A stretch of DNA of 64,000 nt from Desulfobulbaceae bacterium. Its GTDB lineage: Bacteria; Desulfobacterota; Desulfobulbia; Desulfobulbales; Desulfurivibrionaceae. The stretch is taken from assembly GCA_003517965.1 (NCBI GenBank), contig DOZO01000041.1:19526-83525 (forward strand), in the 5' to 3' direction. The position numbers were made by a program, and so were the translations under genes. Below, one piece after another: positions 3,040-59,247 of the stretch (positions are counted from its first letter, which is position 1; each line of letters starts with the position of its first letter). A model generated the notes under the pieces. That model did no database searches, was not told the DNA's origin, and worked only from the letters and a program-made list of their open reading frames with translations.

Positions 3040-3291
3040 ATGGAATTTAATAAGAATTTATTCTGGGATGTTCAAGTTGAGACCCTTGACCTTGAAAAGC
3101 ATGCCCGTTTTATTATCGAAAGGGTTGTTTCCAGGGGCAATCGGCAAGATTGGCAACTGCTCAAGAGGGTTTATGGAAAAGAAAGAATCAGGGATGAGGC
3201 GGTGAGGATACGATCACTGGACAAGAAGACCGTCAGCTTTTTAAGTGTCTATTTGGGATTGGAGAAAGCCGAATTCCGATGCTGCAGTTAA
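3040..3291 (+). CDS. DUF6922-like small protein (putative antitoxin partner of AbiEii)
   Basis: LFWDV....LD.EKHARFIIERVV.RG...DW..L...YG pattern. Overlaps the start of the downstream nucleotidyltransferase. Confidence 0.75.
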   Translation: MEFNKNLFWDVQVETLDLEKHARFIIERVVSRGNRQDWQLLKRVYGKERIRDEAVRIRSLDKKTVSFLSVYLGLEKAEFRCCS

Positions 3292-3911: not shown

Positions 3912-3935
3912 GCTACGAGCAGTATCTCATCGCTA
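3887..3935. repeat. Degenerate heptamer tandem repeat with inverted partner
   Basis: GCGAGCG-ACTAGCG-ATGAGCA-ATGAGCT-ACGAGCA. TAGCGATGAG (3896-3905) pairs with CTCATCGCTA (3926-3935). Confidence 0.55.
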
Positions 3936-4124
3936 CAAAAAAACTCATGCCAAAACCCAATGAGCAGGGTAGAGACCGTGTGTTCAATAGATGAACAGAA
4001 GGGCAATTCCTTAGATTGTAAGTTGCCGTCCCCTGCTTGTTATCGATTTTAAGCTGGAGGTTTTGAGTTACTTAATTTCTTTGGAGCGTCCCGGAACACC
4101 AACTCCACGGAACCCCAAACAACC

Positions 4125-4153
4125 TTGCGTTGGTCTCTATTTTGATCTATATT
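4125..4153 (+). promoter_or_regulatory. Putative sigma70 promoter of the Phd-RelE module
   Basis: TTGCGT-17 bp-TATATT, ~35 bp upstream of the ATG, which has an AAGGGGG SD. Confidence 0.5.
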
Positions 4154-4188
4154 TAAGCCAATAGGCAGATTAATTTAAGGGGGTTACC

Positions 4189-4479
4189 ATGAAAACTATT
4201 TCAATCAGTAATGATATTGTCCCGATTGCGGAGTTTAAAACAAATATTTCCAAATGGTTCAAGACTCTTCAGGTATCTGGGCATCCTCTCATTATTACTC
4301 AAAACAGCAAACCAGCTGGGGTATTGTTGTCAGCTTCGGATTACGATGAATTGGTATACCGTAAATCATTTCTTGATTCTGTCGAAAGGGGTATAGCAGA
4401 TGCAGAAGACGGGCGAATCCAAACAACTGATGAACTGCGAAAATTTCTGAAAGAACGAAGAAGCATGTCTTCCTCATGA
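4189..4479 (+). CDS. Phd/YefM-family antitoxin
   Basis: DIVPIAEFK......F........PLIITQN.KPAGVLLS...YD. ATGA overlap with the toxin. Confidence 0.9.
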   Translation: MKTISISNDIVPIAEFKTNISKWFKTLQVSGHPLIITQNSKPAGVLLSASDYDELVYRKSFLDSVERGIADAEDGRIQTTDELRKFLKERRSMSSS

Positions 4480-4763
4480 TAATAACATGGTCACGAGAAG
4501 CCAGTGAAAATCTGGTTGAGATCGAGGATTTTATCGCACGTGACAGCCGGGAGCGCGCTGTTCGGTTTGTTGATTCCCTGATCGACCATGTTGAGACAAT
4601 TTTGGCAGATAACCCGAGAAGCGGAAGAGGCGTGCCGGAAATAAGCAATCTCAATATGCGAGAGCTTATTTACCGAGGATACCGCATTGTGTATAGATTC
4701 AAGGGGGATATCTTAGAAATACTTACCGTTTTTGAAAGACATCGACAATTAAGGCTAAGTTAA
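4476..4763 (+). CDS. RelE/ParE-family toxin
   Basis: I.WSREA..NL.EI..FIA.DS...A, P.SGR.VPE, RELI...YRIVYR, ILTVFE. Confidence 0.9.
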   Translation: MIITWSREASENLVEIEDFIARDSRERAVRFVDSLIDHVETILADNPRSGRGVPEISNLNMRELIYRGYRIVYRFKGDILEILTVFERHRQLRLS

Positions 4764-4927
4764 TCTTGCGAATAGCAAAAGTCAAAGGGATGCATTCAAG
4801 CCGAACAGATTGAGGCATCCCCTCCTGATTTTCAAGAATTGTTTGAAGTTCCTCCCGCTCAAGCATGTGGGAGAAGCCCTATGCCCAATAGAAAAATAGC
4901 AAACAACGTTACCCAGATGAGCCCCGA

Positions 4928-5003
4928 AAGTCGGGAATTGCTGAAAATGAGTCATGTTAACAAAGGGAGAAAGGCTGACCTACCGAATTTTTTAGGAGCG
5001 TCT
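4928..5003 (+). repeat. 76-bp dispersed repeat, copy 1
   Basis: 67/76 identical by manual alignment to 8229-8304. The 3' 22 bp of copy 2 also recur at 4069-4090 (21/22). Confidence 0.85.
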
Positions 5004-5082
5004 CCTTTGATGCCTTTTACACGAATGTCCCCCCCGGGAACGACACGTAAAACGTGGTATGTCCTTGATTGTTCCAATAATT

Positions 5083-5101
5083 GTTGGCAATCTTTGTCAA
5101 C
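5083..5101. promoter_or_regulatory. Putative ParD operator palindrome
   Basis: GTTGGCAA-TCT-TTGTCAAC (one mismatch), ~30 bp upstream of the RHH antitoxin start. Confidence 0.5.
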
Positions 5102-5131
5102 TCATGGCATTGTGGTTGCGGAGGTACTTAT

Positions 5132-5392
5132 ATGACCACAATGAATGTTTCTCTTCCCGACCAGATGAAACGCTGGGTCGAGGTACAGGCTCATACCGGG
5201 CGCTACAGCAATGCCAGCGATTATGTTCGCGACCTTATCCGCAGAGACCAGGAGCAGACCGTCAAGATTGTTGAAATGCAGAGGCTGGTAAGCGAAGGCC
5301 TGGGAAGCGGCATCAGCGATCAGTCTATGGTTGCCATCCTAAATTTCTTCCGCTTGCAAGCGGAAGCGAAAAAGCAGGATCATGGCCTATAG
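5132..5392 (+). CDS. parD: ParD-type ribbon-helix-helix antitoxin
   Basis: MTTMNVSLPD.MK.WVE.Q...GRYSNASDYVRDLIRRDQE. GGAGG SD upstream of ATG 5132. Confidence 0.9.
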   Translation: MTTMNVSLPDQMKRWVEVQAHTGRYSNASDYVRDLIRRDQEQTVKIVEMQRLVSEGLGSGISDQSMVAILNFFRLQAEAKKQDHGL

Positions 5393-5678
5393 ACTGACGC
5401 GCAAGGCCGCTGAAGATATCAGCGCCCTCTTCAGCGAAGGTGCCCGCAAGTTTGGCTTCGGTCAAGCAGAAAAGTATCATGCCGGATTGGATGGGATCTT
5501 TCAGCTCATTTCCGACAATCCCGAATTAGCCAGAAATCGTTTGGAAATCTCTCCTCCCGTTCGTGTTTATCCCTACGGCTCGCATCTGATTATTTATCTT
5601 GTCGAAGGAAATCGGGATGTGCTGATCGTGCGGGTTCGCTACGGACACGAAGACTGGCTGGCCTCGGATCAGTCTTAA
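5382..5678 (+). CDS. parE: ParE-family toxin
   Basis: MAYRLTRKA.EDI.......R.FG..QA..Y, P.LAR.R.EI.PPVRV.P..SH.IIY, VLIVRVR.G.EDW. Confidence 0.9.
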   Translation: MAYRLTRKAAEDISALFSEGARKFGFGQAEKYHAGLDGIFQLISDNPELARNRLEISPPVRVYPYGSHLIIYLVEGNRDVLIVRVRYGHEDWLASDQS

Positions 5679-5816
5679 AGTGGCGTCTGATAAATTTCCG
5701 TTTCCCCCCCGGTGACCCCATCCTGGCCCTCCGAAACTCCCTCGGCGATAGTTCGGTATGATGTCCCCCAGAACTCTCCGAGACCCATGAAGCCCGCGAA
5801 CATATCACGTTTGTAA

Positions 5817-5845
5817 TTGAAATTATCATGATAATTTAATATAGT
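5817..5845 (+). promoter_or_regulatory. sigma70 promoter overlapped by a perfect 18-bp palindrome
   Basis: TTGAAA-17-TATAGT; AAATTATCATGATAATTT at 5820-5837. Confidence 0.6.
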
Positions 5846-5876
5846 GTTCCGAAAATATCTGTGAGGGTATGAAAAA

Positions 5877-7025
5877 ATGATCCCCCGGCGGTTGACATTG
5901 CCCCATCCAGGAGAAGAGACTTTTTTCCTCTGGGGGCCCCGTCAGACAGGCAAGACAACCCTTTTGCGTGAGAGATATCCCGACGCGTTCTGGGTCGATC
6001 TGCTGAAGGCCGAGGAATACCGGCGTTACCTTGAACGTCCTGAATTGCTCCGTGAAGAGCTCCGGGCCTATGAAAGCCCGCCGTTTGTGGTTATCGATGA
6101 GGTGCAGAAAGTACCGGCACTGCTGGACGAGGTGCAATGGCTCCATGAGAATCGCCGGGTGCGCTTTGCCCTGGCTGGCTCCAGCGCGAGAAAGGTGCGG
6201 CGCGGCCATGCCAACCTGCTCGGCGGCAGGGCTATTCGCTATGAGCTGCAGGGATTTGTTTCCATGGAATTAGGGGCGCAGTGGGATTTCGGGCGGATGC
6301 TCAATCATGGCTATCTGCCCAGTATCTATCTCGCCTCCGACCCCAAGAGGCGCTTGAATGCGTATGTGGCTGATTACCTAAAAGAAGAAATAGCCGCCGA
6401 GGGACTCGTCCGCAACCTGCCTGTGTTTTCAGGCTTTCTCAATCTCGCCTCGCTTTCCGATACGGAGCTGGTCAACTATTCCACCATTGCCCGGGATTGT
6501 GGAGTTTCCAGCCAGACCATCAAACAATATTTCACCATCCTGGAAGATACCTTGTTGGGCAAGTGGTTGCCCGCCTACCGAAAACGCCCCAAGAGAAGAG
6601 TGATCGGTGCACCGAAATTTTATTTTTCCGATGTAGGTGTGGTGAATTTTCTTGCCAAGCGGGGGAGCTTGGAGCCGGGTTCGGAGCTGTATGGTAAAGC
6701 TTTTGAAAATTGGTGTTTCCATGAGCTCAGTGCCTACAACCTGTATAGCGAATCTTTTGCCGAGCTGAGTTACTGGCGTCTGGCAAGCGGGCTTGAGGTG
6801 GATTTTGTTGTCAACGACTTGGCCGTGGTAATTGAAGCAAAGTCATCGGCAAAGATTACCACCGACCACCTGAAGGGAATCCGGGCTATAAAAGAAGACC
6901 AACCAGAGGTGGGTCGCGCCATCGTCGTCTGCCTGGAGTCAAGGCCGCGACAGACAGAGGATGGCATTGACATTCTGCCTGTGGAAACATTTTGCAACAT
7001 GTTATGGTCCGGAGAATTGTTTTAA
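5877..7025 (+). CDS. AAA_14 ATPase with C-terminal DUF4143 / PD-(D/E)XK-like domain
   Basis: Walker A GPRQTGKTT, Walker B VVIDEVQK, GSSARK, LLGGRA, PKFYFSDVG, FEN, YWR...GLEVDFV...IEAK. Confidence 0.9.
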   Translation: MIPRRLTLPHPGEETFFLWGPRQTGKTTLLRERYPDAFWVDLLKAEEYRRYLERPELLREELRAYESPPFVVIDEVQKVPALLDEVQWLHENRRVRFALAGSSARKVRRGHANLLGGRAIRYELQGFVSMELGAQWDFGRMLNHGYLPSIYLASDPKRRLNAYVADYLKEEIAAEGLVRNLPVFSGFLNLASLSDTELVNYSTIARDCGVSSQTIKQYFTILEDTLLGKWLPAYRKRPKRRVIGAPKFYFSDVGVVNFLAKRGSLEPGSELYGKAFENWCFHELSAYNLYSESFAELSYWRLASGLEVDFVVNDLAVVIEAKSSAKITTDHLKGIRAIKEDQPEVGRAIVVCLESRPRQTEDGIDILPVETFCNMLWSGELF

Positions 7026-7122
7026 CCTGACAAGACTGATTTAAATTAGCAAGATAGCAAGCAGCGTTCCCTTCTCTCCCCTTGTCACGTTGGCATGGTA
7101 AATGACTTGCTACTCAGTACAA

Positions 7123-7143
7123 TTGTATGATATGAGCATACAA
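7123..7143. promoter_or_regulatory. Putative operator inverted repeat of the wHTH-MNT gene
   Basis: TTGTATG-7-CATACAA immediately before ATG 7145. Confidence 0.45.
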
Positions 7144-7144
7144 C

Positions 7145-7732
7145 ATGAGCATATTATCTGAATTCCTCTCATCAAAAGTCCGAGCGGAACTATTGCGACT
7201 TCTTTTTGGGGCAAATAATTCGGAGTTACACATGCGCGAGATGGCAAGGCAGGCGGGCTGTGCTATCGGCACTATGCAAACCGAATTGGCGAGGTTGCGC
7301 CGCTTGGATTTGATTTTGCCCAGAAAAGATGGCAACCGCACCTATTACCGTGCCAATATTGGACATCCTTTATATTCCGAAATTCACGGCTTGGTTCTTA
7401 AAACTGTGGGGCTTGTTGACGTCTTGCGGCAGGCATTGGGGAAAAGTCCCGACATCAAATTTGCCTTTGTGTTCGGTTCCATAGCCAGGAATGAGGAAAC
7501 GGCAGGCAGTGATATTGATCTGCTGGTTATTGGCAGGCTTGGTCTGCGGGATTTAGTGGGACTGTTGACTGGGGTGTCAGAGCAGCTTGGCAGAGAAATT
7601 AACCCCCATGTCATGAGTGTTGAAGATTTAATCGCCCGCAAAGTCGACGATGATCATTTTATTACCCATGTTGTTGCTTCACGTAAAATATTCATTATTG
7701 GGAATCAGGATGAGTTTGAAACAATGGGCTGA
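7145..7732 (+). CDS. wHTH-fused minimal nucleotidyltransferase (MNT antitoxin-like)
   Basis: N-terminal wHTH (LH.REMARQAG...GT.Q.EL..L); AFVFGSIAR.E....SDIDLLVIG; LGREINP. Confidence 0.85.
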   Translation: MSILSEFLSSKVRAELLRLLFGANNSELHMREMARQAGCAIGTMQTELARLRRLDLILPRKDGNRTYYRANIGHPLYSEIHGLVLKTVGLVDVLRQALGKSPDIKFAFVFGSIARNEETAGSDIDLLVIGRLGLRDLVGLLTGVSEQLGREINPHVMSVEDLIARKVDDDHFITHVVASRKIFIIGNQDEFETMG

Positions 7733-8152
7733 TAATGGATGGCTTCGCCAACATGTGACGAGTCCAGAGGAAATCGACAACCTACTGAAGATTGTCGATC
7801 GGGATTTGAAGGATGCCAAGGAAGGCGGTGTTTCCAACGACTGGCAGTTTGGTATTGCCTATAATGCCGCGCTCAAACTTTGTGCTATTCTCTATACGCT
7901 GAAGGATACAAGGCCGAACGCACCTTGCAGCACTATCGAACTATTCAGGCTTTGCCGATAATTTTGGGGAAAGCCAGGAACCCAGACGCTCAATATATGG
8001 ATACGTGTCGTGCCAAAAGAAATATTGCCGAATATGACCAAATTGGTGTCGTAAGCAAAGGGGAGGCAGATGAGTTGATTGCGTTTGTGGAAGAATTGCG
8101 GCAGGTTGTACTGCCATGGCTTAGAGACAATCATCCTAATTTGTTGGATTGA
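7710..8152 (+). pseudogene. HEPN-domain toxin-like gene, frameshifted near 7893
   Basis: MSLKQWADNGWL...IAYNAALKLCAIL continues in another frame as YAEGYKAERTLQHYRTIQAL...CRAKRNIAEYD (RN...Y HEPN-like motif). One base appears to be missing at ATT CTC TA TAC. Confidence 0.75.
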
Positions 8153-8228
8153 CCAATCTCTTGATTTTATATCGGGAGTTATTGATACTGTCCCCGGAAC
8201 TCGTTCCACGGGATGATAGAATGTCCGG

Positions 8229-8304
8229 AAGTCGGGAATTGCTAAAAATGAGTCATGTCAACAAACGAAGCAAGGCTGACGTACTTAATTTCTTAGGAGC
8301 GTCT
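8229..8304 (+). repeat. 76-bp dispersed repeat, copy 2
   Basis: Match to 4928-5003. Ends GGAGCGTCT just before a truncated gene. Confidence 0.85.
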
Positions 8305-8307
8305 GGA

Positions 8308-8415
8308 GTAACCAAACGTTTCCTCACGCGCAAGCTGGCCGAATACGAAGATCCCCAGCAACAGATCGCCGAACTGGAAGCCGATTTAGCCCAACTTGAC
8401 AACTTGGAAGCCTGA
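8308..8415 (+). pseudogene. 3' remnant of an EPS-associated MarR-family regulator
   Basis: VTKRFLTRKLAEYED.QQQIAELE resembles, from recall, the C-terminal helix (T..FL.RK..EYE.L..EI..L) of EPS-locus MarR proteins. No N-terminus is present. Confidence 0.6.
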
Positions 8416-12266: not shown

Positions 12267-12414
12267 GGGAACCTTGCTAATGACTTTCACAACCGTTTGA
12301 TATTAGAGAAATTATGATCTATATTGAAGATGTTATATTTCTGAAAAAGACAATGCGCTGGGATGAATTTATAGGTCAAGTTGCACAGCGGAACTATCAG
12401 GTAGATGAGCTGAT

Positions 12415-13815
12415 ATGAACAAAGCCAAACTTCTTGCCCTTCTTGCCAGTGGTGAAGATAGCCGCCATCAATTCAAGCGCGACTTTACCCATATTGATGC
12501 GCTGGCTGCGGAGCTGATCGCGTTTGCCAACACAGGAGGCGGCCGGTTATTTATCGGTGTCGCCGATGATGGCCAAGTGTCTGGACTGGATGCGACAGAT
12601 GTAGCAAGGCTCAATCAACTACTGTCGAATGCAGCCTCGCAAAGTGTCCGTCCTCCCATCAATACGGTAACAACCAATGTCAAAACCGGGCAAGGTTTGG
12701 TCATAGTGGTTAATGTGGCCGAAGGATTGAATAAGCCTTATGTGGACACACAGGGGCGTATATGGGTTAAGAGCGGGGCAGATAAACGCCATGTGACTGC
12801 ACGGGAAGAAATGCAGCGCTTGTTTCAAGCGTCTGGGCTGGTCTATGCGGATGAGGTGCCTGCCAGACCAGCGACAATCTCAGATCTTGACCTGTCCGCC
12901 TTTGCGCAGTATTTCAACCGGCGTTACCGCAAACCTGTTGAAGTAACTGGCCAGCAGCTGCCGCAGTTACTGAAAAATCTTAACCTGGTTCGTGATGGTG
13001 TTCCCAACTTGGCGGGCTTGCTACTGTTTGGTAAAACGCCCCAGGCGATCAAACCCTCCTTTGTGATCAAAGCTGTCGCCTTTCCTGGTACGGTGTTGCA
13101 TGACAACCGCTATCTGGACAGTGAAGACATCGACGGCAACCTGTTTGAACAGTACCGACGCGGCATAGCTTTTATCAAACGTAACCTGCGTCATGTTCAG
13201 GGTAATCAAGGATTCAACAGCCCGGGTCTGCTGGAAGTGCCAGAAGATGTTTTTGAAGAGTTGCTGGTTAATGCACTGGTGCATCGCGACTATTTTATTA
13301 GCGCACCCATTCGCCTTCTGATTTTTACTGATCGAGTGGAGATCATCAGCCCCGGGCACTTGCCCAATCATCTGGATGTTGAGCAGATTCGCTTTGGTTT
13401 ATCCAATCTACGCAACCCGGCATTAGCTTCACATGCGTTTTATATGCTGCCATACCGCGGCTTAGGTAGCGGCATTCCCCGTGCTACCGAGGCTTGGCCG
13501 GATATAGAGCTGATCGATGATCGGCGAGGTAATCAGTTTAAGGCTGTGATTCGCCGTCATGAGGACGGCGAAATCAATTCGCAGCCAGAGTCGCAGCCAG
13601 AGTCGCAGCCAGAGTCACTGGAAAGCAGAGTGCTACGCATACTGGCAAACAAGCCCGCTAATAAAGCCGAGATTTCTGCGCAGCTTGGACAGAAGGAGAT
13701 CTCTGGTCAGCTCAATAAAGTCATGCGCGATTTGCTGGCGGCCAAAATGATTGAGCACACCATTCCGAACAAACCGAACAGTCGCCTGCAACAATATCGG
13801 CTTTGTACGCCATGA
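12415..13815 (+). CDS. AlbA_2 (Schlafen-like) DNA-binding domain + HATPase_c_4 + wHTH protein
   Basis: GED..HQFK, AFANT.GG.LFIGV.DDG, ELLVNALVHRDY, EIISPG.LP, RNP.LA, GSGI, SQPE repeat, C-terminal P.KP.SR.QQYRL. Candidate promoter TTGATA-17-TATATT at 12297-12325. Confidence 0.88.
   Translation: MNKAKLLALLASGEDSRHQFKRDFTHIDALAAELIAFANTGGGRLFIGVADDGQVSGLDATDVARLNQLLSNAASQSVRPPINTVTTNVKTGQGLVIVVNVAEGLNKPYVDTQGRIWVKSGADKRHVTAREEMQRLFQASGLVYADEVPARPATISDLDLSAFAQYFNRRYRKPVEVTGQQLPQLLKNLNLVRDGVPNLAGLLLFGKTPQAIKPSFVIKAVAFPGTVLHDNRYLDSEDIDGNLFEQYRRGIAFIKRNLRHVQGNQGFNSPGLLEVPEDVFEELLVNALVHRDYFISAPIRLLIFTDRVEIISPGHLPNHLDVEQIRFGLSNLRNPALASHAFYMLPYRGLGSGIPRATEAWPDIELIDDRRGNQFKAVIRRHEDGEINSQPESQPESQPESLESRVLRILANKPANKAEISAQLGQKEISGQLNKVMRDLLAAKMIEHTIPNKPNSRLQQYRLCTP
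13579..13616 (+). repeat. 12-bp tandem repeat x3 (TCGCAGCCAGAG), coding SQPE
   Basis: Three perfect copies in the linker before the wHTH. Confidence 0.9.
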
Positions 13816-13826
13816 GAATCTGTGTC

Positions 13827-13978
13827 ATCACGGATCAACCTTCGTTGGTTAAACGACCACATGACATGAGCCTGTCCAATCAAAAAATTTGCAAGTTGCT
13901 CGGCAGGAAACTCGGTGATGTGCAAGAACACCTTGCAAGACTTCAACAGCAGGAACAAGACGGGCTTGCCCAGGAATT
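13827..13978 (+). repeat. 152-bp direct repeat, copy 2 (probable original 3' end of the RmlD-like gene)
   Basis: Continues ...QELQKL* with an ATGA overlap into pseC. Confidence 0.95.
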
Positions 13979-48744: not shown

Positions 48745-51639
48745 TTTCCAGAACTAAGCGTCTTGTGAGAAATGCCTCATTATTGAGTAAAGAATCTTTG
48801 CAGACACGTTATCTCTGGATATTTGCCTTTTGTTTCGCGACGGTTTCCTCGCTACTGTTCCAGAAATTTATGCTGCCGCTACTGCCGTCCATACATGCAG
48901 GTTCCGGCTTGCTTATGAATGACGCGGAGTACTACCATAAATCTGCGCTGCTTATTGCGGAGAATATTCGCGGGCATGGCTGGTCGGCATGGTCGATTTG
49001 GTCGGTACAAACCAATACGGGGGGTAATGTAGCCGTTCTTGCCGCGCTATATGCCATTTTTCAGGTAGACCCTGCCCTGGTTATCCCGGTTAACGCCTTT
49101 TTCCAGGCAAGCAGCGCTTTTTTGCTTCTCCTTATTGGGCGTGAATTGTGGCCCGGTCGGGCAGGCAATATTGCCGGGTTGGTCGTTGCGGTGCTTTTTG
49201 TAGTCTTTCCCTCATCGCTCAGCTGGTACAGTCAACCGCTTAAGGATTGTTACGTCATCACCGGTATGCTGCTGATTCTCTATACCTGGCTCAAGGCGCT
49301 TCATTCCTTGCCAGAGAAAGGCAGTCTGGCGGCGCTTCTTGCATGGATGTGGTTGGGCATCCTGCTGGTTGCCTTTGTTAAACTGTATTATCTCAAGCTG
49401 TTGCTTGTTGTTGCGGGAATGACTGCCTGTCTTGTGGCGGGTCATTTTCTGCGGGTGAAACATCCTCAACGTTACCGCGTTTTGTTTTTTTACTTCGTTG
49501 CTGTTTTTCTCATAGCCATAACATTGCAAATTATGCTCCCTTTTGTGAAGGAGCATAGCGAGGGGTATGCCGTATGGACCCCTGCTGTTATTGACACTAC
49601 GCAAGCGTGGCGATGGCAGGAATCACCCTGGCTGCCAGATACCCTGGAAAGATATTGGGAGACAGTAGCGAAAACCCGTGCTGGCATGATAGAGCACAAT
49701 TATCGCGTTAGTGCCGGCTCGATTATCGATGCAGAAAGAGCGCCGCAGTCAGTTTCTGAGATACTTCTGTATTTGCCGCGCGCCCTGCAGATCGCCTTGT
49801 TTGCGCCATTCCCAGATACATGGTTACAGAAGCCCAGCTTGGTTAGGTTTATCGGCGTATGCGAAACGGTGCTCTGGTATTGCATCTTTCCCGGCCTGTT
49901 GTTCGCGTTGTATTACCGGCGCACACTTGCGATGGCGGTAACCTTGTTGTTTGCCGTTTTTTTTATGACGGTATTCAGCTTTGTGACCCCAAACGTCGGC
50001 TCTTTATATCGTTACCGGTATGTCTATGAATTTATGTTGATGGTTATCGCCATTGGTGGTTGGGTTCAGTTTTTTTTGAATCATCCGGGCAAAAAAAAAA
50101 GACGCGCATCAGAAGCCTGCCCGGAGGCCTTCGCTTTGGCAGAGAGCAATAATCTGGTTCAGCACAGAGACACAAAGAAAAATCTTATCAGTGTTGCTGC
50201 TACGGTTTCTTTGCTGACACTGATCGGGGCACTGGGTTTTTTTGCCCGCGATCTCTTTATGATCCGTTGGTTTGGCGCGGGTAATGAGATGGATAATTTT
50301 TGTCTCGGTGCTTTCCATCCCGGCCGGAACGGCAATGACCCCGGTATTTTCTGTATTACAGAATGTTTCCGATCGGTTGACACAGGCAAGAGTTATCGCT
50401 TCAGCAGCGCTTTTTTTGTCGCTGCTGCTTGCCTTAGTCTCTATCCTTTTGTATTTTCTGGCGCCCTATCTATTTTCGGCGTTGAGCTGGCATTATAGTG
50501 ATGAAAAGATGGCAGTGATTCTTAAGATCATGAATATTTATTTGGTGATTCTGCTGCTCAGTGGTTTGGTAGTTACTGCCAATGCCATTCTCAATACCGA
50601 GGGGATATTGATATTTCCGACGGTGGCACAATTGGCAGTGCCGGTTGTGGTATTTATGGCACTGTTAATGTTTGGTGCGGCGCATGGGATCAATGCTGCT
50701 GCTTATGGCATGTTGGCTGGGCAAATCGTGAACCTTGTTCTGGTTGTTTATGCACTCAGGCGATGGGTATCTTTACCGTTGCTCCGGCCGGACATCTCGA
50801 TGGCGCTCCAGCAGCTACCTTTTTATCAGTATTTTATTCTTGTGGCGGCCTCACTGTCGGCTGCGCTGGTTGTCCCGGTAGCAAATGCAATAGCGGCTAA
50901 GTTGCCAGTTGGTAGTATTGCTATCATTGGTTTGGGTTTGAAGGTTGTTTTGCTGGTCACGGGCGTACTCGGGATGGGCATGACAACGGTGTTGTTACCG
51001 TATTTTTCCAATCTGGTGGCAAAATTTAATCATCATCAGGCAAGATCTGATCTGTCTTTTTTTCTATTGTTGGTAACCTTGCTCAGTGTTCCGGCAGCAC
51101 TTGTCCTGACAGTGCTGGCAGAATTCGTAACTGTTGCAGTGTTTGCAAACAGTGCGCTAAGCGAAGTAGACATACATAATGTGGTAAGAGTGATTCAATA
51201 CGGGGTGATCCAGTTGCCCTTTTTCACATGTGGGCTGGTGGCCATTAAATTCATCACCGCCTATCAGCGCACCTGGATTATCCTGCTGTCATCGCTGGTG
51301 GGTCTGGTGCTGACCGTTATTTTGGGCGTGTTTCTCGCAAAATTATTCGGGGTTGGCGGCATTTCCCTGGCCATGACATTATCGATGGCGGTTTCAGCGG
51401 CAATTCTGGTTTCTTATGCAAACTACCTCAAACATTTACCGGTTTCTGATAGTGTATTTATTGTGTTTAACTGGATTCTCTTTATTACCCTTTTTATTTG
51501 CCTGCATTATCGTGTGTATGTAGCAGCGGTAATTTCCGGAAGCGCATATCTTCTCCTGGTGGCAGGCAACTGGCATGCGATGATTGTTCATGCATACGGA
51601 GGTAAAATACCCCTTCGATATCGCTATAAAGTGGGTTGA
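48741..51639 (+). pseudogene. Polytopic membrane protein (Wzy/GT-C-like) fused to a MurJ/MOP flippase, frameshifted near 50295
   Basis: ORF1 (48741-50498) has D...Y, LKD and N.G.L.RYR motifs, then a MurJ N-terminus (LG..RD......FGAG.EMD). The MurJ body continues in the +1 frame (ORF 50272-51639: VSVLSIPAG.A..P..., LLPYFS). Confidence 0.7.
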
Positions 51640-51717
51640 CGACTGAATTCCGGCGTGTTGATACAGCAGGACGGAACATCTCGCACGCTGTGCTGCGGAC
51701 AGCGTAAGGGCTTTTGC

Positions 51718-51771
51718 ATGAAACGACTGTTTGATCTGATTCTGGCTCTTTGGGCAACGGTTGTTCTGTAG
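51718..51771 (+). pseudogene. 5' remnant of a priming sugar (phosphoglycosyl) transferase
   Basis: ATG after AAGGG gives MKRLFDLILALWATVVL*, the KR.FD signature of bacterial sugar transferases. It stops at TAGTTCAGGGGACAG. Confidence 0.75.
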
Positions 51772-51935
51772 TTCAGGGGACAGTTTACTTTTAACTATAC
51801 GCTTACTCCATAAGAAAAAGGGCGTACCGGAGGGGCCATTTTCGGGAATTCTGGGATCATTATATTTAACTCTAAGGCTCCTCGTAAGCGCTTTGTTAGT
51901 TGAACACAAAAGGATATTATTATGCGATATTTCCA

Positions 51936-52019
51936 AATGAACATCGTGAGGAGTTGATGGAGGATTGGAATCTATGTCGTGCCAAACAGCTACTCAAACA
52001 AATCAAGCCCCTGGAGTAG
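51936..52019 (+). pseudogene. 3' remnant of a DUF4160-family gene
   Basis: EHREELMEDWNLCRAKQLLKQIKPLE* fits the H..EL...W.........I.PL C-terminus. Overlaps the DUF2442 start. Confidence 0.65.
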
Positions 52020-52298
52020 TTCCCTCGGTTCCGTGGAGGATCCGTGACTTAAGTGTGTTGCCAGATTGGCAACTCTCTGTGACCGTTTAACGACGGTTTG
52101 GTTGGGACGGTGGATATTTCCGAATTAATCAATTCCCCTGCCCCAGGCATTTTTGCAGCCCTGCGGGATCCGTTATATTTTGCACAAGCCTATTTGGATT
52201 ATGGTGCTGTAGCGTGGCCTAATGGTGCCGACATAGCCCCGGAAGCTATGTATGAAGCTATTCGTCAAACAGGATTATGGCAAGTTGCTGACGTATGA
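51974..52298 (+). pseudogene. DUF2442-family gene with +1 frameshift at ~52085
   Basis: ...PWRIRDLSVLPDWQLSVT / FNDGLVGTVD...GIFAALRDP..F.QAYLDYGAV.WPNGADIAPE.MY. Confidence 0.75.
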
Positions 52299-52606
52299 TG
52301 TGGGCAAGCCAAGCGTGGATATAGTTCCGGGTACCAAGTTTCGTAAACATGGCTGCCCCTCGAACGGTTGCAGCTGGATGTTGAGGTGGTGACCAGCGTC
52401 TTCAATAGGAGTGAGGTTTTTTTGCAACAATCTTGATGTTTCTTGCAACGTATTGCTTGTTAATTGTCGGTGTAACCTCCCGTAACTAAATGATTTTATC
52501 ATTTTTAATTTCAATATGCTTGTAATGGTCTGCTTTTTGCATCTGATCTGTATGGTATCGTTATCGTTGTAAAATACACACAGAGCAGAAAAAGAGTGTT
52601 TATCAT

Positions 52607-53590
52607 ATGGATTCATTACAGCACACCATCAAAAGGCCGGTAAGCTTCGCGGGTATCGGCCTTCATTCCGGCAAGATTGCCACCCTCGCCATTTTGCCTG
52701 GTGAAGAAAACAGTGGGATTCGTTTTGTCCGCAGTGATTTGCCGGAGGCCCCGCCAACTCCAGCCTTCATGAACCGGATCGTGGATACTCGGCTTGCCAC
52801 CACTATCGCTACCGAGGATGAGGCGATGATCTCTACCACGGAACATCTGCTGGCCGCGCTTTTTGGCATGGGCATTGATAACGCGGTGGTCGAACTGGAT
52901 GGTGCCGAAGTGCCCATTATGGATGGCAGCGCCGGTCCCTTTGTGCATGTTCTTAAAAAAGTTGGTCGTCGTCAGCAGAACGCCTGTAAGTGGATGCTCA
53001 GGGTGAACAAGGAAATCTCCTATTTCGAGGGCGATTCTTTCGTGAAGATTTTGCCTTATAAAGGGTTCAAGGTCACCTGCGAGATTGAGTTTAACCATCA
53101 TTTGATCAGGAAGCAGGTTTTTTCCAGTGAATTGACGCCGCAAAAATTTGCTCAGGAGGTTGCCGGAGCAAGAACCTTCGGTTTTTTGGATCAGGTCGAG
53201 AAGCTCAGACAGAGCGGTCTTGCCCTGGGTGGTTCTTTGGAAAATGCCGTAGTTATTGACGATGATGGCATAGTTAATGCCGAAGGTCTGCGTTTTGTCG
53301 ATGAGTTTGCCAGGCACAAGGCCTTGGACGTGATTGGTGATCTGGCGCTGCTGGGTTTCCCATTGCTTGGCCATATTGTGACCAAAAAATCAGGCCATAC
53401 CCATCATTTCTCCTTGATGAAGCAACTCGCGGCTCAGCCTGAGCGTTGGGATCTTATCGCCTATGAGGAAGAAGGGGAGAGTCGGGTGCTTGAAAAAGTG
53501 GTCTTGAGCACCAAGGAGGCTGGCGACAAACTGTTGTCCTATCTGTTGCCGCCCAGCATCGCCCTTGCTGGGCAACCTTGCTTTGCTTAA
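52607..53590 (+). CDS. lpxC: UDP-3-O-acyl-GlcNAc deacetylase
   Basis: Q.TI...V...GIGLHSG, TEHLLAAL, GIDN, E.PIMDGSA, ARTFGF, GGSLENA, HKALD.IGDL, SGH. Confidence 0.96.
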   Translation: MDSLQHTIKRPVSFAGIGLHSGKIATLAILPGEENSGIRFVRSDLPEAPPTPAFMNRIVDTRLATTIATEDEAMISTTEHLLAALFGMGIDNAVVELDGAEVPIMDGSAGPFVHVLKKVGRRQQNACKWMLRVNKEISYFEGDSFVKILPYKGFKVTCEIEFNHHLIRKQVFSSELTPQKFAQEVAGARTFGFLDQVEKLRQSGLALGGSLENAVVIDDDGIVNAEGLRFVDEFARHKALDVIGDLALLGFPLLGHIVTKKSGHTHHFSLMKQLAAQPERWDLIAYEEEGESRVLEKVVLSTKEAGDKLLSYLLPPSIALAGQPCFA

Positions 53591-53617
53591 ATGATGCAAC
53601 CTCACCTGAGAGGAACG

Positions 53618-53652
53618 ACCCGCGGATGTTGCAAAACTCCGCGGGTTTTTTT
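53618..53652 (+). terminator. Intrinsic terminator after lpxC
   Basis: ACCCGCGGA-loop-TCCGCGGGT followed by a T-run. Confidence 0.7.
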
Positions 53653-53798
53653 ACGCCCGGCGCAGGGGGTGTTTTGCTGAATCCTGCTTGCAATGCAGGG
53701 AAAAATTGGTACGATGCTGCATTATCAGTATTGTTGACCAAGCATGGTCGGATTTTTCAATTTATTCATTAACAGCCCCTAAGCATGAGGAGCATAAT

Positions 53799-54635
53799 AT
53801 GGGTTTTTCAGGAAAACTTGGTTTTGTTGGCGGGGGGTTGATGGCCGAAGCCCTGATCAAGGGGATAATCGGGGCCGGGCTTGTTGAGGCAGGGCAGATT
53901 CTGGCCGCAGATCCCAGCAGTGACCGGCAGGCCTTGTTGCACAAAGAATATAAAGTGGCCACGGTTTCAGAGGCCACGGCTGTCTGGGCGGAGTGCAAGG
54001 TTGTTGTTCTCGCGGTCAAGCCTCAGGTTTTAGGGGGAGTCCTTAGAGATTCTCGAGATAAGATCAAGGCCGATCATCTGCTTATCTCCATCGCCGCCGG
54101 TATCCCGCTATCCGTGCTGGAAGGTGCAGTTTCCGGATGTGGTTGTCGGGTTATTCGGGTGATGCCCAATACCCCGGCTATTGTGCTTAAGGGCGCATCT
54201 GCTTTGAGTCCTGGCCAGGGGGTGACTTCTGAGGATATGGCTTGCGCCGCCAGCATCTTTGATGCGGTCGGCATAAGCATTGTCTTGGATGAGACCTACC
54301 TTGACGCAGTTACCGGCTTGAGCGGCAGCGGCCCGGCCTATGTGTTTACCTTTATCGAAGCCTTGATCGACGCCGGGGTTAAAGTGGGTCTGGCCCGACC
54401 TGTGGCCCAGAGTCTTGCCTTGCAAACGGTGCTTGGTTCGGTTCTCCTGGCGTTGGATGGCAACAGGCATCCTGCCGAGTTAAGGGCCATGGTAACCTCG
54501 CCCGGCGGCACAACCATTGCCGGTCTGCATGAGCTTGAAAAAGGGGCCTTCCGTTCGCTGGTCACCAATGCGGTGGAAGCAGCCACCAACCGTTCTTGTG
54601 AACTCGGTCGGCTTGTCGTTGCTGACTCCTTGTAG
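53799..54635 (+). CDS. proC: Pyrroline-5-carboxylate reductase
   Basis: GFVGGG.MA, LAVKPQ, SIAAG, RVMPNTP, TGLSGSGPAY, VTSPGGTT. GAGGAG SD before ATG 53799. Confidence 0.96.
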   Translation: MGFSGKLGFVGGGLMAEALIKGIIGAGLVEAGQILAADPSSDRQALLHKEYKVATVSEATAVWAECKVVVLAVKPQVLGGVLRDSRDKIKADHLLISIAAGIPLSVLEGAVSGCGCRVIRVMPNTPAIVLKGASALSPGQGVTSEDMACAASIFDAVGISIVLDETYLDAVTGLSGSGPAYVFTFIEALIDAGVKVGLARPVAQSLALQTVLGSVLLALDGNRHPAELRAMVTSPGGTTIAGLHELEKGAFRSLVTNAVEAATNRSCELGRLVVADSL

Positions 54636-54647
54636 ATTGGGATTGTA

Positions 54648-55484
54648 ATGGAAATCCGTAAGGTTGGGATCATCTGTAAAAAGGATTCTTCCGCCGCTCT
54701 GGGGATGAGCAGGGAACTGCTTGCCTGGCTGGGTGAACGGGGTATTGTCGCCTCAGTTGATAGCATTGCTGATGACATGGATCTGCTGATCATTCTGGGT
54801 GGAGATGGCACCTTGCTCCATGTCGCGGATCAAGCAAGTCGACTGCAAGTGCCGGTGGTCGGGGTAAATCTTGGTGATCTTGGATTTTTGACCGAAGTGG
54901 CGGTCAGCGAGCGCTATGCGGTTTTGGAAAGTATTCTGGCCGGACAGGTTGTGGTTGAGGAAAGGCTGATGCTTAAGGTCAGACTTCATCATGGCGCCGA
55001 GACGGTTGCCTGGCGTTATGCATTAAATGATGTCGTCGTTAGCAAGGGCAGCGCCGACCGGCTTGCTCAGTTGAGTACCTGGGCTGATCAGGAGTACATC
55101 ACCACCTACCGGGCGGATGGTCTGATCTTTTCCACGCCTACCGGTTCCACGGCCTATAACCTCTCCGCTGGCGGGCCTATCGTCAACCCGGCTTTGCAGT
55201 CCATCCTGGTCACGCCGATCTGCCCGTTCATGCTGGAAAGTCGTCCGGTGCTTCTCCCTGCCTCGGTTTGTCTTACCACCAGACTTGCCGAACAGGCTGA
55301 CAGGGTAAAGGTTATTGTCGATGGCCAGCCGGCCTGGGAGATGTCGGCCAACGACACCCTGGAGGTAATGGCCTCGGAAAGACCTTTGCGGCTTATCTGT
55401 TCTCCGCAGAAGGATTATTTTGAAATCTTGCGCAATAAGTTGAACTGGGGTGGTCGGGCAGGTGAGATGCGCAAAAAATCGTAA
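54648..55484 (+). CDS. nadK: NAD kinase
   Basis: LGGDGTLL, GVN.G.LGFL, ALND, DGLI.STPTGSTAY.LSAGGP, DGQ. Confidence 0.95.
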   Translation: MEIRKVGIICKKDSSAALGMSRELLAWLGERGIVASVDSIADDMDLLIILGGDGTLLHVADQASRLQVPVVGVNLGDLGFLTEVAVSERYAVLESILAGQVVVEERLMLKVRLHHGAETVAWRYALNDVVVSKGSADRLAQLSTWADQEYITTYRADGLIFSTPTGSTAYNLSAGGPIVNPALQSILVTPICPFMLESRPVLLPASVCLTTRLAEQADRVKVIVDGQPAWEMSANDTLEVMASERPLRLICSPQKDYFEILRNKLNWGGRAGEMRKKS

Positions 55485-55510
55485 GCGGTGATGGTTGCGT
55501 ATTGGAGCAT

Positions 55511-55555
55511 AAAAAAAGCGGATGCCTCTTTGCCTTGAGGCCTCCGCTTTTTTTT
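55511..55555. terminator. Bidirectional intrinsic terminator
   Basis: A7-GCGGA.GCCTC...GAGGC.TCCGC-T8 between convergent nadK and the YtxH gene. Confidence 0.8.
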
Positions 55556-55579
55556 ATGGCCAAGTTTTGCGTACGGTTT

Positions 55580-55969
55580 TTAATCCTTTCCTGCAAGTTT
55601 GTGAGACAGTGCTTCCCGCTCTTCCTGCATGGCAATCTTCCCGGCTTCAATGGCTTCGTTGAGGGTTCGTTTTTTATCGTCGAGAAATTCCTTGCCCTGC
55701 GCGGCAAGGTCTGTGCCGCGGCTGATGAGTTCCTTGCCCTTGGCGATCATATCTTTGCTTCGTTCAAGAGCGGTTTCTTTGTATTCCTCAAAATCATCAG
55801 GGAAGGTCTTGGCTCTTTCCTTTAGCTCGGCTCCATAGTCGGCCAGCCTTTCCCGGGTTTCCTGCCCTGTCCTTGGGGCGGTTAACAGGGCTATAGCTGC
55901 CCCGACAACGGTGCCGGCCAGGAAGGATAGTACTGCCGTGCTGGAATTGTCGCAGTTGTCTCTGCTCAT
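55580..55969 (-). CDS. YtxH-domain protein
   Basis: FLAG..VGAAIALL.AP..G.ETR..L followed by an amphipathic helical region. Confidence 0.85.
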   Translation of the reverse strand: MSRDNCDNSSTAVLSFLAGTVVGAAIALLTAPRTGQETRERLADYGAELKERAKTFPDDFEEYKETALERSKDMIAKGKELISRGTDLAAQGKEFLDDKKRTLNEAIEAGKIAMQEEREALSHKLAGKD

Positions 55970-56370
55970 ATCAGGCTCCTTTTTTTGGTTGTTTTTAAGG
56001 ATCGGTTGAGAAAATGTGCAAAAGTCATTATTCCGGTGCTGAAACCGCCTATTTTGCTGATAAAGGGGCTTACCGTTTCTTTGAGTATGGTGGCGGTGGT
56101 GAGCAAAATGTCTGCCGATTTCTGGGCGGTGTAGATAACCTTGTCTGTTTTTTCCAGCTTGTCGCTTAATGAAATTGAGAGGAGCTGGATTTCATGGGAT
56201 GCCTTGGTCAGGGATTTGCACAGCGGGTCAACATGCGTGTTCAAGGCATCGATAAAAACTTCAATCTTCTGCCAGGTACGTCGGAATTGGAGGAAGGTTG
56301 GAACTATGGCGACGGCAATGGCAAAAAGGCTTACGGCGCTAAGCATGGAGAAAAAATCTGAATAGGTCAA
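55966..56370 (-). CDS. DUF948-like membrane-anchored coiled-coil protein
   Basis: N-terminal TM helix then coiled coil; overlaps the YtxH start, a usual pairing. Confidence 0.6.
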   Translation of the reverse strand: MTYSDFFSMLSAVSLFAIAVAIVPTFLQFRRTWQKIEVFIDALNTHVDPLCKSLTKASHEIQLLSISLSDKLEKTDKVIYTAQKSADILLTTATILKETVSPFISKIGGFSTGIMTFAHFLNRSLKTTKKRSLI

Positions 56371-56503
56371 TTCCGTTGCTCCTGTGTGGGCCAGTAATAG
56401 TGATACAATAGCATGTGTATATCATAGAGGTGTTTGTTCAGGGCTGCAAGAAGAAAAGTCGTCAACTGTTGACGCAGGTGGTGGCCTTATGACAGATATA
56501 GCG

Positions 56504-56896
56504 TTACCTGCACGCCAGGCTGATAATCAGCGGGATAACATGTATCTTTTTGGAAACGGTCTGGGTAGTGCCGAGCTTCCAGTCGGTACAGGTAGCCTTG
56601 TCGCCCAATAGTGCGTCGATCTCCGTTACCAGACCCTTGATGTTGATGATGGGGTGGCGGTTGAACACTCCGGGCAGACCGTAGGTCAGATTGCAGGCCA
56701 GACATTTGCCTGGACGCTCGTGGAGTTCGAGGGCCAGGGTGAGGGTGTCGGCTGTCTGCTCCTTGAAAATCAGGTGGATGTCGTAGGCCCCTTCTTCGGC
56801 GTTGCCGAACAGGGCATCGAAGAAAGCGTGGGCCCGTTCGGGTGGAAAGAGGGCTTGCAGGGTTTCCGGGGTAAAAATATCCTGTGCGCTGTCCAT
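56504..56896 (-). CDS. Conserved hypothetical protein with CxxC
   Basis: LFP..R...FF.ALFG..EEGAYDI, RPGKCLACNLTYGLP.VF.RHP. AAGGA SD. Confidence 0.7.
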   Translation of the reverse strand: MDSAQDIFTPETLQALFPPERAHAFFDALFGNAEEGAYDIHLIFKEQTADTLTLALELHERPGKCLACNLTYGLPGVFNRHPIINIKGLVTEIDALLGDKATCTDWKLGTTQTVSKKIHVIPLIISLACR

Positions 56897-57030
56897 GTAT
56901 ATTTCCTTGGCCTTGAGTGAAAAAAGTTTTGTTGATGTCTGTTTGCCATGTTCAGGTACTCTACCAGTCAGGTATTAAAATTCAACTTTTTTGTCGATTG
57001 CCGCCCTACTGATGTGTTAGAGTTGCCGCC

Positions 57031-59247
57031 ATGCAACCCACCCTTTTTTCCATCGAATCAAAGTCCCCTCCCGCACGGCCTGCCAGCCAGATCAGCCGCA
57101 AGGCCTTGAACGAGGCGCAATACGAGGCGGTGACCACGGTGAACGGGCCGGTGCTGGTTATTGCCGGGGCAGGCAGTGGCAAAACCCGTACCCTGGTCTA
57201 TCGCCTGGCCCATCTGGTTGAGCAGGGCGTGCCCCCGGAGCAGATCCTGCTTTTGACCTTTACCCGCAAGGCCTCCCAGGAGATGTTGCACCGGGCCAGC
57301 TTGCTGCTGGACGATTCCTGTCGCCGGGTGATGGGCGGCACCTTCCATGCCACGGCCAATCTGCTGCTGCGCCGCTATTGCCGTCATCTCGGCTATGCGG
57401 CCAATTTTACCATCCTCGACCAGTCCGATGCCGAGGGCATCGTCAATCTGCTTAAATCCTCCTTGAATCTGGGGGGCGAGAACAAGCGTTTTCCCTCCAA
57501 ACGGGTGGTGGTCAGCATCCTGAGTAAGTCAGTGAACAAGGGCCTTGGGATCGAACAACTGGTCGAGACCGAGTATGGCCATTTTCATGATTTTGCCGAT
57601 GATCTGCAGACCATTGCCCGCCATTACCAGAAATTCAAGCTTGAACACAGCCTCATGGATTACGACGATCTGCTGGTGAATTGGCGCCGGATTCTCGAAG
57701 AGTTCCCTGAGATACACGAGGAGCTGGCCACCCGTTTCAGCCATATCATGGTGGATGAATATCAGGACACCAATCCTATTCAGGCAGCCATTGTTCGTTT
57801 GATGGCGGCGCGGTATAATAATGTGATGGTGGTGGGCGATGATTCCCAGTCCATCTACAGTTTTCGCGGTGCTGATTTTCGCAACATCATGGATTTCCCC
57901 AATCTTTTTCCCGAAACCCGGCTTATCCGTCTGGAAGAGAACTATCGGAGTACCCAGAAGATCCTTGACCTGACTAACGCCATCATCGACAAGGCCCAGG
58001 AAAAATATACCAAGACCCTGTTCACCAACATCACGGGCGGGGAAAAGCCGGTGGTTTATGGGGCCAGGGATGAGGTCGCCCAGGCCCGCTATGTGGCGGA
58101 AAAAATCGTGGCCTTGCGCAAAGCGGGTGAGCCGCTCGATGAGATGGCGGTGCTCTTTCGCTCCGGTTTTCATTCGTACAAGCTGGAGCTTGATTTGAGC
58201 CACAGGCAGATTGAGTTTGAAAAACGCGGCGGGTTAAAGCTCAACGAGCTGGCCCATAACAAGGATGTCATCTCCTATCTGCGGGTGGTGGCTAATCCCC
58301 ACGACCATCTCTCCTGGAACCGGCTTCTGCTGCAGCTCGACAAGGTGGGGCCCAAGACGGCCCAGAATATCCTGAGCCGGGTCAAGAGTGCGGATGATCC
58401 TCTGACGGCCCTTAAGCAATACCCGGCTGGAAAAACCTGGGCCAAGGGTTTGGCTGAGCTGCTGGCGATGCTCGAAGAGCTGAGGCTGCCGGGGATGGGC
58501 GTGGGTCAGATGTTTGAGCGGATCATGGACTACTACGAGCCGATCTTCGAGCGGCTTTACCACGACGATTATCCCCGCCGCCGCCGGGATCTGGACGAGT
58601 TGGGCCGGGTGATGGCTGGGTATGCGGAGTTGCAGACCTTTTTGGATGATGCCTCTCTCGATCCGCCCCAAGCCGGGGCGGTGGCGGAGGATGGGGGCAA
58701 ACGACTGGTGCTTTCCACTATTCATTCGGCCAAGGGTCTGGAATGGGACACGGTTTTTATCATCAATCTGGCGGAAGGCCGCTTTCCTTCGGCCCAGGCT
58801 GTGCTGCCGGCCCATCGGGAAGAAGAGCGTCGTCTGCTCTATGTGGCCGCGACCAGGGCCCGGAAACAGTTGTATCTGGTCTATCCGCAGGAGGTAATGT
58901 CTTACGATTCGTCATCAGCCGCGGGTGGGCCTTCCCCCTTTATTCAGGAGTTACCCCATGGCCTGACCCAGACCTCTGCGCCCCGGTTCTTTGCCTATGC
59001 AGGTGGGCAGGAGGAGCGGCATTCTGATATCCCCCCGTGCAGCTCTGGATCTCAGGCAGATTTGTCCACTCAGAGCGGGGCTGAGGCAGCCCCTAAGATC
59101 AAGCTCGGCAACCGGGTGCGGCATCCTTTCTTTGGGGAAGGTGTAGTGGAAAAGATTATCAGCCCCAAATCGGTGGAGATTTTATTCCACCGGCACGGCA
59201 GAAAAACCCTGCATCTTGATTATGCCAAGCTGGAGCTGATATCATGA
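57031..59247 (+). CDS. uvrD: UvrD/PcrA-family ATP-dependent DNA helicase
   Basis: LN.AQ, VIAGAGSGKT, TFT.KA, GTFH, VDEYQDTN, VGDD.QSIYSFRGA, LEENYRST, TIHSAKGLE, EERRL.YVA.TRA, C-terminal Tudor-like RV.HP.FG.G. Confidence 0.93.
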   Translation: MQPTLFSIESKSPPARPASQISRKALNEAQYEAVTTVNGPVLVIAGAGSGKTRTLVYRLAHLVEQGVPPEQILLLTFTRKASQEMLHRASLLLDDSCRRVMGGTFHATANLLLRRYCRHLGYAANFTILDQSDAEGIVNLLKSSLNLGGENKRFPSKRVVVSILSKSVNKGLGIEQLVETEYGHFHDFADDLQTIARHYQKFKLEHSLMDYDDLLVNWRRILEEFPEIHEELATRFSHIMVDEYQDTNPIQAAIVRLMAARYNNVMVVGDDSQSIYSFRGADFRNIMDFPNLFPETRLIRLEENYRSTQKILDLTNAIIDKAQEKYTKTLFTNITGGEKPVVYGARDEVAQARYVAEKIVALRKAGEPLDEMAVLFRSGFHSYKLELDLSHRQIEFEKRGGLKLNELAHNKDVISYLRVVANPHDHLSWNRLLLQLDKVGPKTAQNILSRVKSADDPLTALKQYPAGKTWAKGLAELLAMLEELRLPGMGVGQMFERIMDYYEPIFERLYHDDYPRRRRDLDELGRVMAGYAELQTFLDDASLDPPQAGAVAEDGGKRLVLSTIHSAKGLEWDTVFIINLAEGRFPSAQAVLPAHREEERRLLYVAATRARKQLYLVYPQEVMSYDSSSAAGGPSPFIQELPHGLTQTSAPRFFAYAGGQEERHSDIPPCSSGSQADLSTQSGAEAAPKIKLGNRVRHPFFGEGVVEKIISPKSVEILFHRHGRKTLHLDYAKLELIS

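Follow-up and report, generated by a model that had tools for sequence, protein, structure and literature searches.

Gene Organization of the Locus

The window (the whole 64,000-nucleotide stretch of a Desulfobulbaceae genome, G000, that was analyzed) contains a long block of surface-glycan genes. Cassettes of toxin-antitoxin type lie to its left, and the order on the right is a MurJ-type flippase gene, an epimerase scrap, a sugar-transferase stub, two right-pointing terminal inverted repeats (TIRs), a DUF4160/DUF2442 pair, an RlmA-like scrap, and lpxC-proC-nadK.

3031–8152 (+): toxin-antitoxin-type cassettes in a stack, with left-pointing TIRs between them (Pfam)
4072–4099 (−): TIR of a second family (GGGACGCTC type); the same motif lies 5′ of a Y1-like gene in G014:C72
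4985–5005 and 8285–8308: decayed copies of the GGGACGCTC-type TIR family
5749–5776 (−, pointing left): further TIR copy, marginal (12.2 bits at 5768)
5832–5859 (−, pointing left): further TIR copy (20.6 bits at 5851)
8176–8202 (−): TIR of the same family as the copy at 51769, pointing left into the nucleotidyltransferase cassette (29.5 bits at 8195)
8400–51639 (+): surface-glycan gene block, a mosaic matched only in pieces by relatives, on the outer side of both TIRs
51696–51717 (+): scrap of the 3′ end of an epimerase gene (DNA alignment to G028 and G013); in relatives this gene precedes the transferase gene, its stop overlapping the ATG
51718–51768 (+): truncated Bac_transf (PF02397) sugar transferase, the first 17 codons of 186 aa (DNA match to six intact genes)
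51769–51797 (+, pointing right): TIRYT-type TIR, seven outer bases and then GGGGACAG...AACTA, supplying the TAG (20.4 bits at 51776)
51846–51871 (+): second TIR, co-oriented with the copy at 51769 (25.6 bits at 51853)
51936–52298 (+): 5′-truncated DUF4160 remnant and frameshifted DUF2442 gene (93% identity to G018:C5; PF10387, E = 6.8e-6)
52321–52335 (+): third copy proposed in the initial annotation, unsupported as a TIR (best ungapped score −9.8 bits)
52350–52407 (+): 3′-terminal scrap of a gene for an RlmA-like methyltransferase (80% identity to G000:C81, whose protein is PF21302; matches in eight relatives)
52408–56458 (+): lpxC-proC-nadK housekeeping block, parted from lpxK (gene order versus relatives)

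A Truncated Sugar Transferase

The transferase stub starts with an ATG at 51718 and runs for 17 codons (MKRLFDLILALWATVVL) to 51768; the TAG that ends it (51769–51771) consists of the first bases of the repeat, as the initial annotation had observed. A DNA search of 41 genomes matched the stub to genes in G013, G014, G022, G028, and G001 and on contig C13 of the same genome, four of the matches ending at 51768. These six intact homologs (PF02397, with a capD-type gene next) agree in register with the stub at 40–47 of its 51 bases but at 10–12 of the following 60, whereas the C13 gene agrees with the other five at 45–52 of those same 60. Alignment with intact transferases of relatives, which had been proposed as a check, thus places the breakpoint at 51768, with no homology running past 51771; because homology stops there, the gene was broken by the junction and not by a nonsense point mutation. 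The truncation is real.

Two unbranched contigs (Logan) cross the joint with zero differences, X1 over 49913–52864 at depth 32 and X3 over 51420–52384 at depth 15; they come from separate samples and an independent assembly, and both may be the source of this DNA. Mis-assembly at the joint is unlikely, as these contigs pass it unchanged. The comparison was made without sequencing runs of small share; in it, no listed piece of the other two runs crosses 51769, and no loose end or joint at 51769 is among those listed in the read assemblies, whose contigs drop rare variants, so that absence is not shown.

The missing 3′ part of the gene, expected beside another copy of the motif, is absent from the G000 assembly, where the only other match is a complete, separate gene on C13. 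That gene is the only intact PF02397 gene of the genome, resembles the stub at 40 of 51 bases, and is accompanied by capD. Given this intact transferase with capD and the patchy occurrence of the family in the genus (9 of 25 genomes), loss of the transferase at this locus was likely tolerated; taken by itself, the breakage of one redundant gene here is nothing unusual.

Identity of the Repeat at the Breakpoint

Judged by its sequence, the motif at the breakpoint is a TIR (consensus GGGGWSAS) of TIRYT Y1/HUH transposases; the consensus is contained in GGGGACAG at 51776 (+) and 8195 (−). A 28-column scoring matrix, trained on 48 repeats from genomes other than G000, found 18 sites above 15 bits in G000 versus none in a 2.5-Mb Markov control. 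The near-match reported earlier at about 8188 holds up, with one mismatch in 14 at 8188–8201 on the minus strand; the 14-mer alone is weak evidence (six matches at up to three mismatches versus 4.35 expected), and the match is backed by the matrix scores at 8195 and 51776. An account in which the stop is a nonsense mutation, the motif a chance likeness, or the joint a mis-assembly can draw on that chance-level count and on the possibility that the spanning runs are source data. It has against it the end of homology at the TAG, matrix scores beyond those of the control, and the unbranched contigs of two samples; already largely refuted, it is scarcely credible.

The stronger copy at 51846–51871 had been overlooked. 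The supposed inverted copy at 52321 did not survive scoring (see list above), and since its orientation equals that of the copy at 51769, a bracket around the DUF4160/DUF2442 pair cannot close. The pair itself is decayed, as first described: 93% identity to G018 extends over 51936–52300, the 5′ end is missing, and there is a one-base frameshift near 52085, where the extra base is absent in run X7. Pfam does not recognize the 27-aa DUF4160 scrap, whose name comes from its likeness to genes of relatives.

The TIR motif has no stable fold and no hairpin (folding z-scores 0.38–0.56). The window contains no PF01797 gene, and no left-pointing partner TIR lies to the right of 51797, so there is no complete TIRtron at the locus. 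A search of genome contigs with the exact 25-base TIR pattern gave no matches. Two other candidates were rejected: GAATTCCGGCG at 51645–51655 (GAATTCCGG at 51645) scores below −12 bits as a further TIR, and the 50 bases inside the first TIR are unlike TIRYT C-termini and were discarded as a transposase tail. GAATTCCGGCG, directly 3′ of the flippase stop, looks like the abortive outer-end copies of G018.

TIRYT Genes and Their Repeats in Relatives

The TIRs of the window belong to the GGGGACAGT family, an inverted pair of which flanks a gene for a 219-aa Y1 protein (PF01797) in G001:C119, G011:C55, and G018:C4. TIRs with this core stand on both sides of 14 of the 30 Y1 loci of the genus, reading inward, and a 16-base inverted pair with the same core surrounds the Y1 gene that G000 itself carries on C80. 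The pattern TTCNGGGGACAGTWT has 35 matches in 10 of 25 genus genomes versus one for the reversed control; a related pattern has 55 matches in 50 GTDB loci from several phyla, of which seven have a Y1 gene on their inner side and one, a tandem case, on its outer side. The cognate enzyme of the GGGGACAGT family was not found in the G000 assembly (85% complete), where the best match, at 48.6%, belongs to a family with a different TIR. In G011:C55 (L097, 868–7784), ten GGGGACAGTA TIR copies lie around one intact cognate TIRYT gene located at 6534–7193. Four of the ten share one orientation and stand between DUF4160/DUF2442, Phd/PIN, and ParE cassettes next to the transposase gene; this is the best natural substrate for experiments.

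In the accessible part of the original description, TIRtrons have GGGGWSAS in inverted copies near both ends of a tyrosine-transposase gene, and solo, dimeric, and clustered copies elsewhere (Di Nocera 2013, PMC3733652). The TIRs of the window resemble these in carrying GGGGWSAS and in belonging to a family that forms inverted pairs at Y1 genes; gene breakpoints at TIRs, toxin-antitoxin stacks with TIRs between the cassettes, and duplicated outer bases find no mention in that part of the account. A later classification, as far as its available text goes, places 20 of 26 TIRYTs in TnpA-Y1 subclass 2.1, with no REP hairpins nearby and a C-terminal Bac_DnaA_C/HTH domain (Quentin 2018, PMC6006769). 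The C70 and G028 proteins (Y1_Tnp plus Bac_DnaA_C) have such an extension. A DnaA-type tail is absent by Pfam from the cognate protein of 219 aa and the C80 protein of 222 aa, which may therefore belong to subclass 2.2. The Y1-like gene of G014:C72 has no Pfam hit, its assignment resting on a match with E = 2.9e-9.

Several other arrangements were seen. Gene-less, inward-facing TIR pairs only 75 bases long occur as miniature elements in L113, L134, and L140, which belong to one gammaproteobacterial genome with many copies. At G000:C62:28500–29500, two direct TIR copies that share an upstream 20-mer bracket a RelE-like/HTH pair, beside which lies a stretch that resembles a truncated integron attC site. 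A CRISPR array directly 5′ of a Y1 gene is found at a contig end (G000:C14:57000–57350). Of the loci L191, L220, L238, and L249, three carry a GGGGTCAGATTCC-type TIR 6 bases 3′ of the transferase stop, and one has two such TIRs upstream.

Displaced Housekeeping Genes and Cassettes

The gene lpxK lies directly 5′ of lpxC in 10 of the 13 loci read in relatives; in G000 it sits on C73. The right-hand adjacency of the lpxC block is found in none of 24 relatives. A TIR was sought at the right-hand junction of the block (56458–56510) and none is there, which, with the heavy shuffling of the genus, indicates that other processes also rearrange these genomes. In G014 the same flippase region (87% identity over 3.6 kb) is followed by Y1 and AbiE genes and then by an intact transferase and capD; in G028 a complete TIRtron lies just upstream of the transferase. 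The uvrD region (window 56500–58384) is 94% identical to that of G014 and lpxC-proC about 84%, which hints at recent exchange between the two lineages. A family of 90–130-base repeats unrelated to the TIR (L104, 2550–2680; L102, 3540–3670), with about 50 copies across G000 contigs, is probably a MITE.

The stack on the left comprises DUF6922/AbiEii, Phd/ParE, ParD/ParE, and AAA-DUF4143 cassettes and a nucleotidyltransferase with a frameshifted partner, and the TIRs between them (3031–8152) are of more than one family. Close relatives of two of these cassettes, Phd/ParE in G014 (90% identity) and ParD/ParE in G011 (93%), are at other places and there not flanked by TIRs. Homology to the G014 Phd/ParE ends 21 bases outside the GGGACGCTC-type TIR at 4072–4099. 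In L163 (G011:C3), the counterpart of the ParD/ParE cassette (window 5074–5689) lies between the arms of a perfect inverted repeat of 16 bases, which has GATAAC/GTTATC cores and does not resemble TIRYT TIRs.

TIR Junctions in the Genus and a Possible Joining Mechanism

Homology of flanking DNA tends to end just outside TIRs throughout the genus. Among 67 TIRs, 30 have a homologous flank with an ending, located at −20 to −1 in 12 cases and at −40 to −21 in six, with 0–3 per 20-base bin further out; these ends were placed by BLAST, with an uncertainty of several bases, and the genomes are kin rather than independent. With wider patterns, 24 of 130 copies have an end in the interval tested (−22 to +3), most commonly at −8 to −13; the transferase junction is at −8, its break lying 7 bases outside the GGGG. 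Of 152 TIRs (a set that includes the wider phylum and neighboring copies), 29 carry their outer 8 bases in tandem copies, versus a control mean of 2.5 and maximum of 6. Other genes cut at TIRs are transposase stubs in G004 and G016, a gene in G011, and a gene in G004 cut about 15 bases before its stop; also in G004, a 5′ TIR and gene stub precede a full element, the two TIRs sharing exactly 7 outer bases. The initial view that the motif is a real recombination or insertion end is supported by its identity as a TIRYT TIR and by these flank endings.

The reading that we favor, with a probability of about 0.55, is that the repeat is a solo TIRYT TIR whose outer end was joined to the transferase gene after codon 17 by a TIRYT enzyme encoded elsewhere. 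Flank homology that stops just outside TIRs, together with outer 8 bases that often recur in tandem, would fit a one-ended process in which the TIR end is fixed and the DNA joined to it varies. HUH enzymes form a 5′-phosphotyrosine with the nicked DNA strand. From this general chemistry, we infer that one strand would be nicked about 7–12 bases outside the GGGG and that the enzyme would keep hold of the TIR-bearing 5′ end and join it to a free 3′ end. A free 3′ end nearby would yield short tandem copies and partial transposase duplications, and a distant one deletions, translocations, and captured cassettes; repeated rounds could build co-oriented stacks of TIRs and cassettes like that at 3031–8310. 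At this locus the outcome would be a transferase stub fused to a scrap pile and the lpxC block.

Some observations count against such joining. The cognate enzyme is missing from the 85%-complete G000 assembly, and the Phd/ParE and ParD/ParE cassettes lack flanking TIRs in G014 and G011. At solo TIRs unrelated DNA follows after about 16–29 inner bases, the inner flanks varying too, so a second, inner-side break needs explaining. No empty-site pair was found for the transferase junction, and the literature search turned up no data on TIRYT cleavage or joining.

Alternatively, a complete TIR-bounded element may have inserted by both ends, a later, unrelated deletion or rearrangement removing its other end together with the 3′ part of the gene and capD. 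Elements are at hand: G028 has complete TIRtrons immediately 5′ of the transferase, and G014 has a Y1-like gene in that position; a C80-type element occupies different places in four genomes at 88–97% protein identity, and the genus is much shuffled without TIRs. Yet no left-pointing partner TIR lies between 51797 and lpxC, the 3′ part of the transferase is nowhere in the assembly, and for complete elements in G004 and G015 the flanking sequences failed to map next to each other in G000. Clean two-ended insertion, moreover, would not be expected to give tandem outer duplications or partial self-duplications, and we regard this two-step history as somewhat unlikely.

A further suggestion is that the Val-Leu-Gly codons of the intact gene mimicked the outer part of the TIR and its G-run, so that the two were joined by likeness. 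RTTCHGGG does occur at the break in four of the six intact homologs, such a site being expected once per about 7 kb, and window positions 51760–51767 match 51768–51775 at six of eight bases; that probability is post hoc. Against this, TTC-N-GGG is at the break in none of 23 other junction targets, and the full 7 outer bases were added rather than exchanged in register. As a general rule the idea was rejected, being absent in those 23 junctions and in 79 distant transferases (0 strict); for this junction it is very improbable. One-ended joining by a TIRYT enzyme acting from elsewhere remains the reading that we prefer.

The Surface-Glycan Block

GGGGACA reads into the element at Y1 loci, so the glycan genes lie outside both TIRs. 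Both TIRs point away from 8202–51768, where the ends of a composite transposon would point into the cargo. No relative shares the 43-kb block, neither as the same block with the same ends nor as an empty site (12 candidates scored per genome, many genomes being incomplete). The longest match to a relative within 8202–47900 is 2.4 kb; the halves of the block match pieces in 8 and 4 of 24 genomes (again 12 candidates scored in each), and its right-hand 5 kb is 87–89% identical to G014. Inside the block, a 152-base direct repeat (95%; window 12278–12430 and 13827–13978), which may be a copy of the end of the gene upstream, surrounds a gene for an AlbA_2/Schlafen-type ATPase (12415–13815).

The initial annotation had proposed that opposite-orientation copies bracket the glycan locus and could mediate its exchange or deletion. 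Copies in opposite orientation are indeed present at both edges. Their ends point outward, however, and because no relative shares the block and the scanned glycan-locus ends of five relatives lack the repeat, exchange or deletion by bracketing has weak support at best; a swap of the entire 43-kb surface-sugar region as a single unit by these repeats is improbable.

The idea can be recast with the outward TIRs at the two edges as docking ends at which the whole surface-glycan block is deleted or replaced. In G000 every copy at the left edge faces left, and the two at the right edge face right. The glycan block of G014 has TIR-like copies of other families at both edges, likewise facing outward (an ORF at its left edge, considered as a transposase, proved to be ORF6N), and in G028, too, TIRs and a TIRtron lie between the glycan genes and the transferase. 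Set against this, the block is a mosaic common to no relative; the glycan stretches scanned in G005, G013, G016, G022, and G023 differ in content and contain no copy of the window's TIR family; and of 79 other metagenome transferase loci (459 kb) none has that family or a Y1 gene, while four loci have another TIR type. G000 and G014 also share history at the right edge (87–93% identity). With the outward geometry repeated in G014 by other TIR families, a docking role is possible but quite unlikely.

Comparison with Known Systems and Implications

TIRYT TIRs resemble REP/RAYT systems (REPtrons) in that an enzyme of the same superfamily acts in trans on dispersed, noncoding copies, and differ from them in having, in the window, neither a GTAG tag nor a hairpin. 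In one-ended transposition of IS91/ISCR elements, an HUH enzyme (Y2) acting at oriIS and terIS ends captures neighboring genes. The proposed TIRYT model would likewise have an HUH enzyme join a fixed end to variable DNA, the TIRYT enzyme being, unlike that of IS91/ISCR, a short Y1 protein with inverted repeats. Like integrons, TIR stacks have co-oriented sites that separate small toxin-antitoxin cassettes; unlike integrons, whose attC/attI sites are palindromic with R″/R′ boxes, they have no hairpin attC structure, and in other genomes the edges of the cassettes are not tied to the TIR. In the available part of a study of RAYTs (PMC5581495), duplication rate and presence on plasmids are reported to be greatest in group 1 once the IS-like group 6 is set aside.

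The repeat class is already published and the junction is real; the mechanism at the breakpoint is inferred. TIRYTs are widespread and were named in 2013, and the accessible text of the literature found gives no mechanism or role. In a literature search with most subscription journals outside its coverage, no papers besides PMC3733652 and PMC6006769 (and the preprint of the latter) mentioned TIRYT, and in the text covered none ties TIRYT TIRs to breakpoints or cassette stacks. The transferase case provides a junction resolved to within one base, a likely bound on the cut site (7–12 bases outside the GGGG), and a duplication signature. With the cognate enzyme–repeat pair supplied by G011:C55, these make the mechanism directly testable.

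In the broadest, unlikely version, TIRYTs would be one-ended genome-editing machines that attach a constant TIR end without a hairpin to nearly any DNA, giving integron-like toxin-antitoxin stacks, cut genes, and relocated housekeeping blocks, while outward TIRs at surface-glycan loci would act as docking ends for swapping or pruning phage-receptor genes. If confirmed, TIRYT joining would be a way of capturing and rearranging genes that differs from both integrons and classical insertion sequences.
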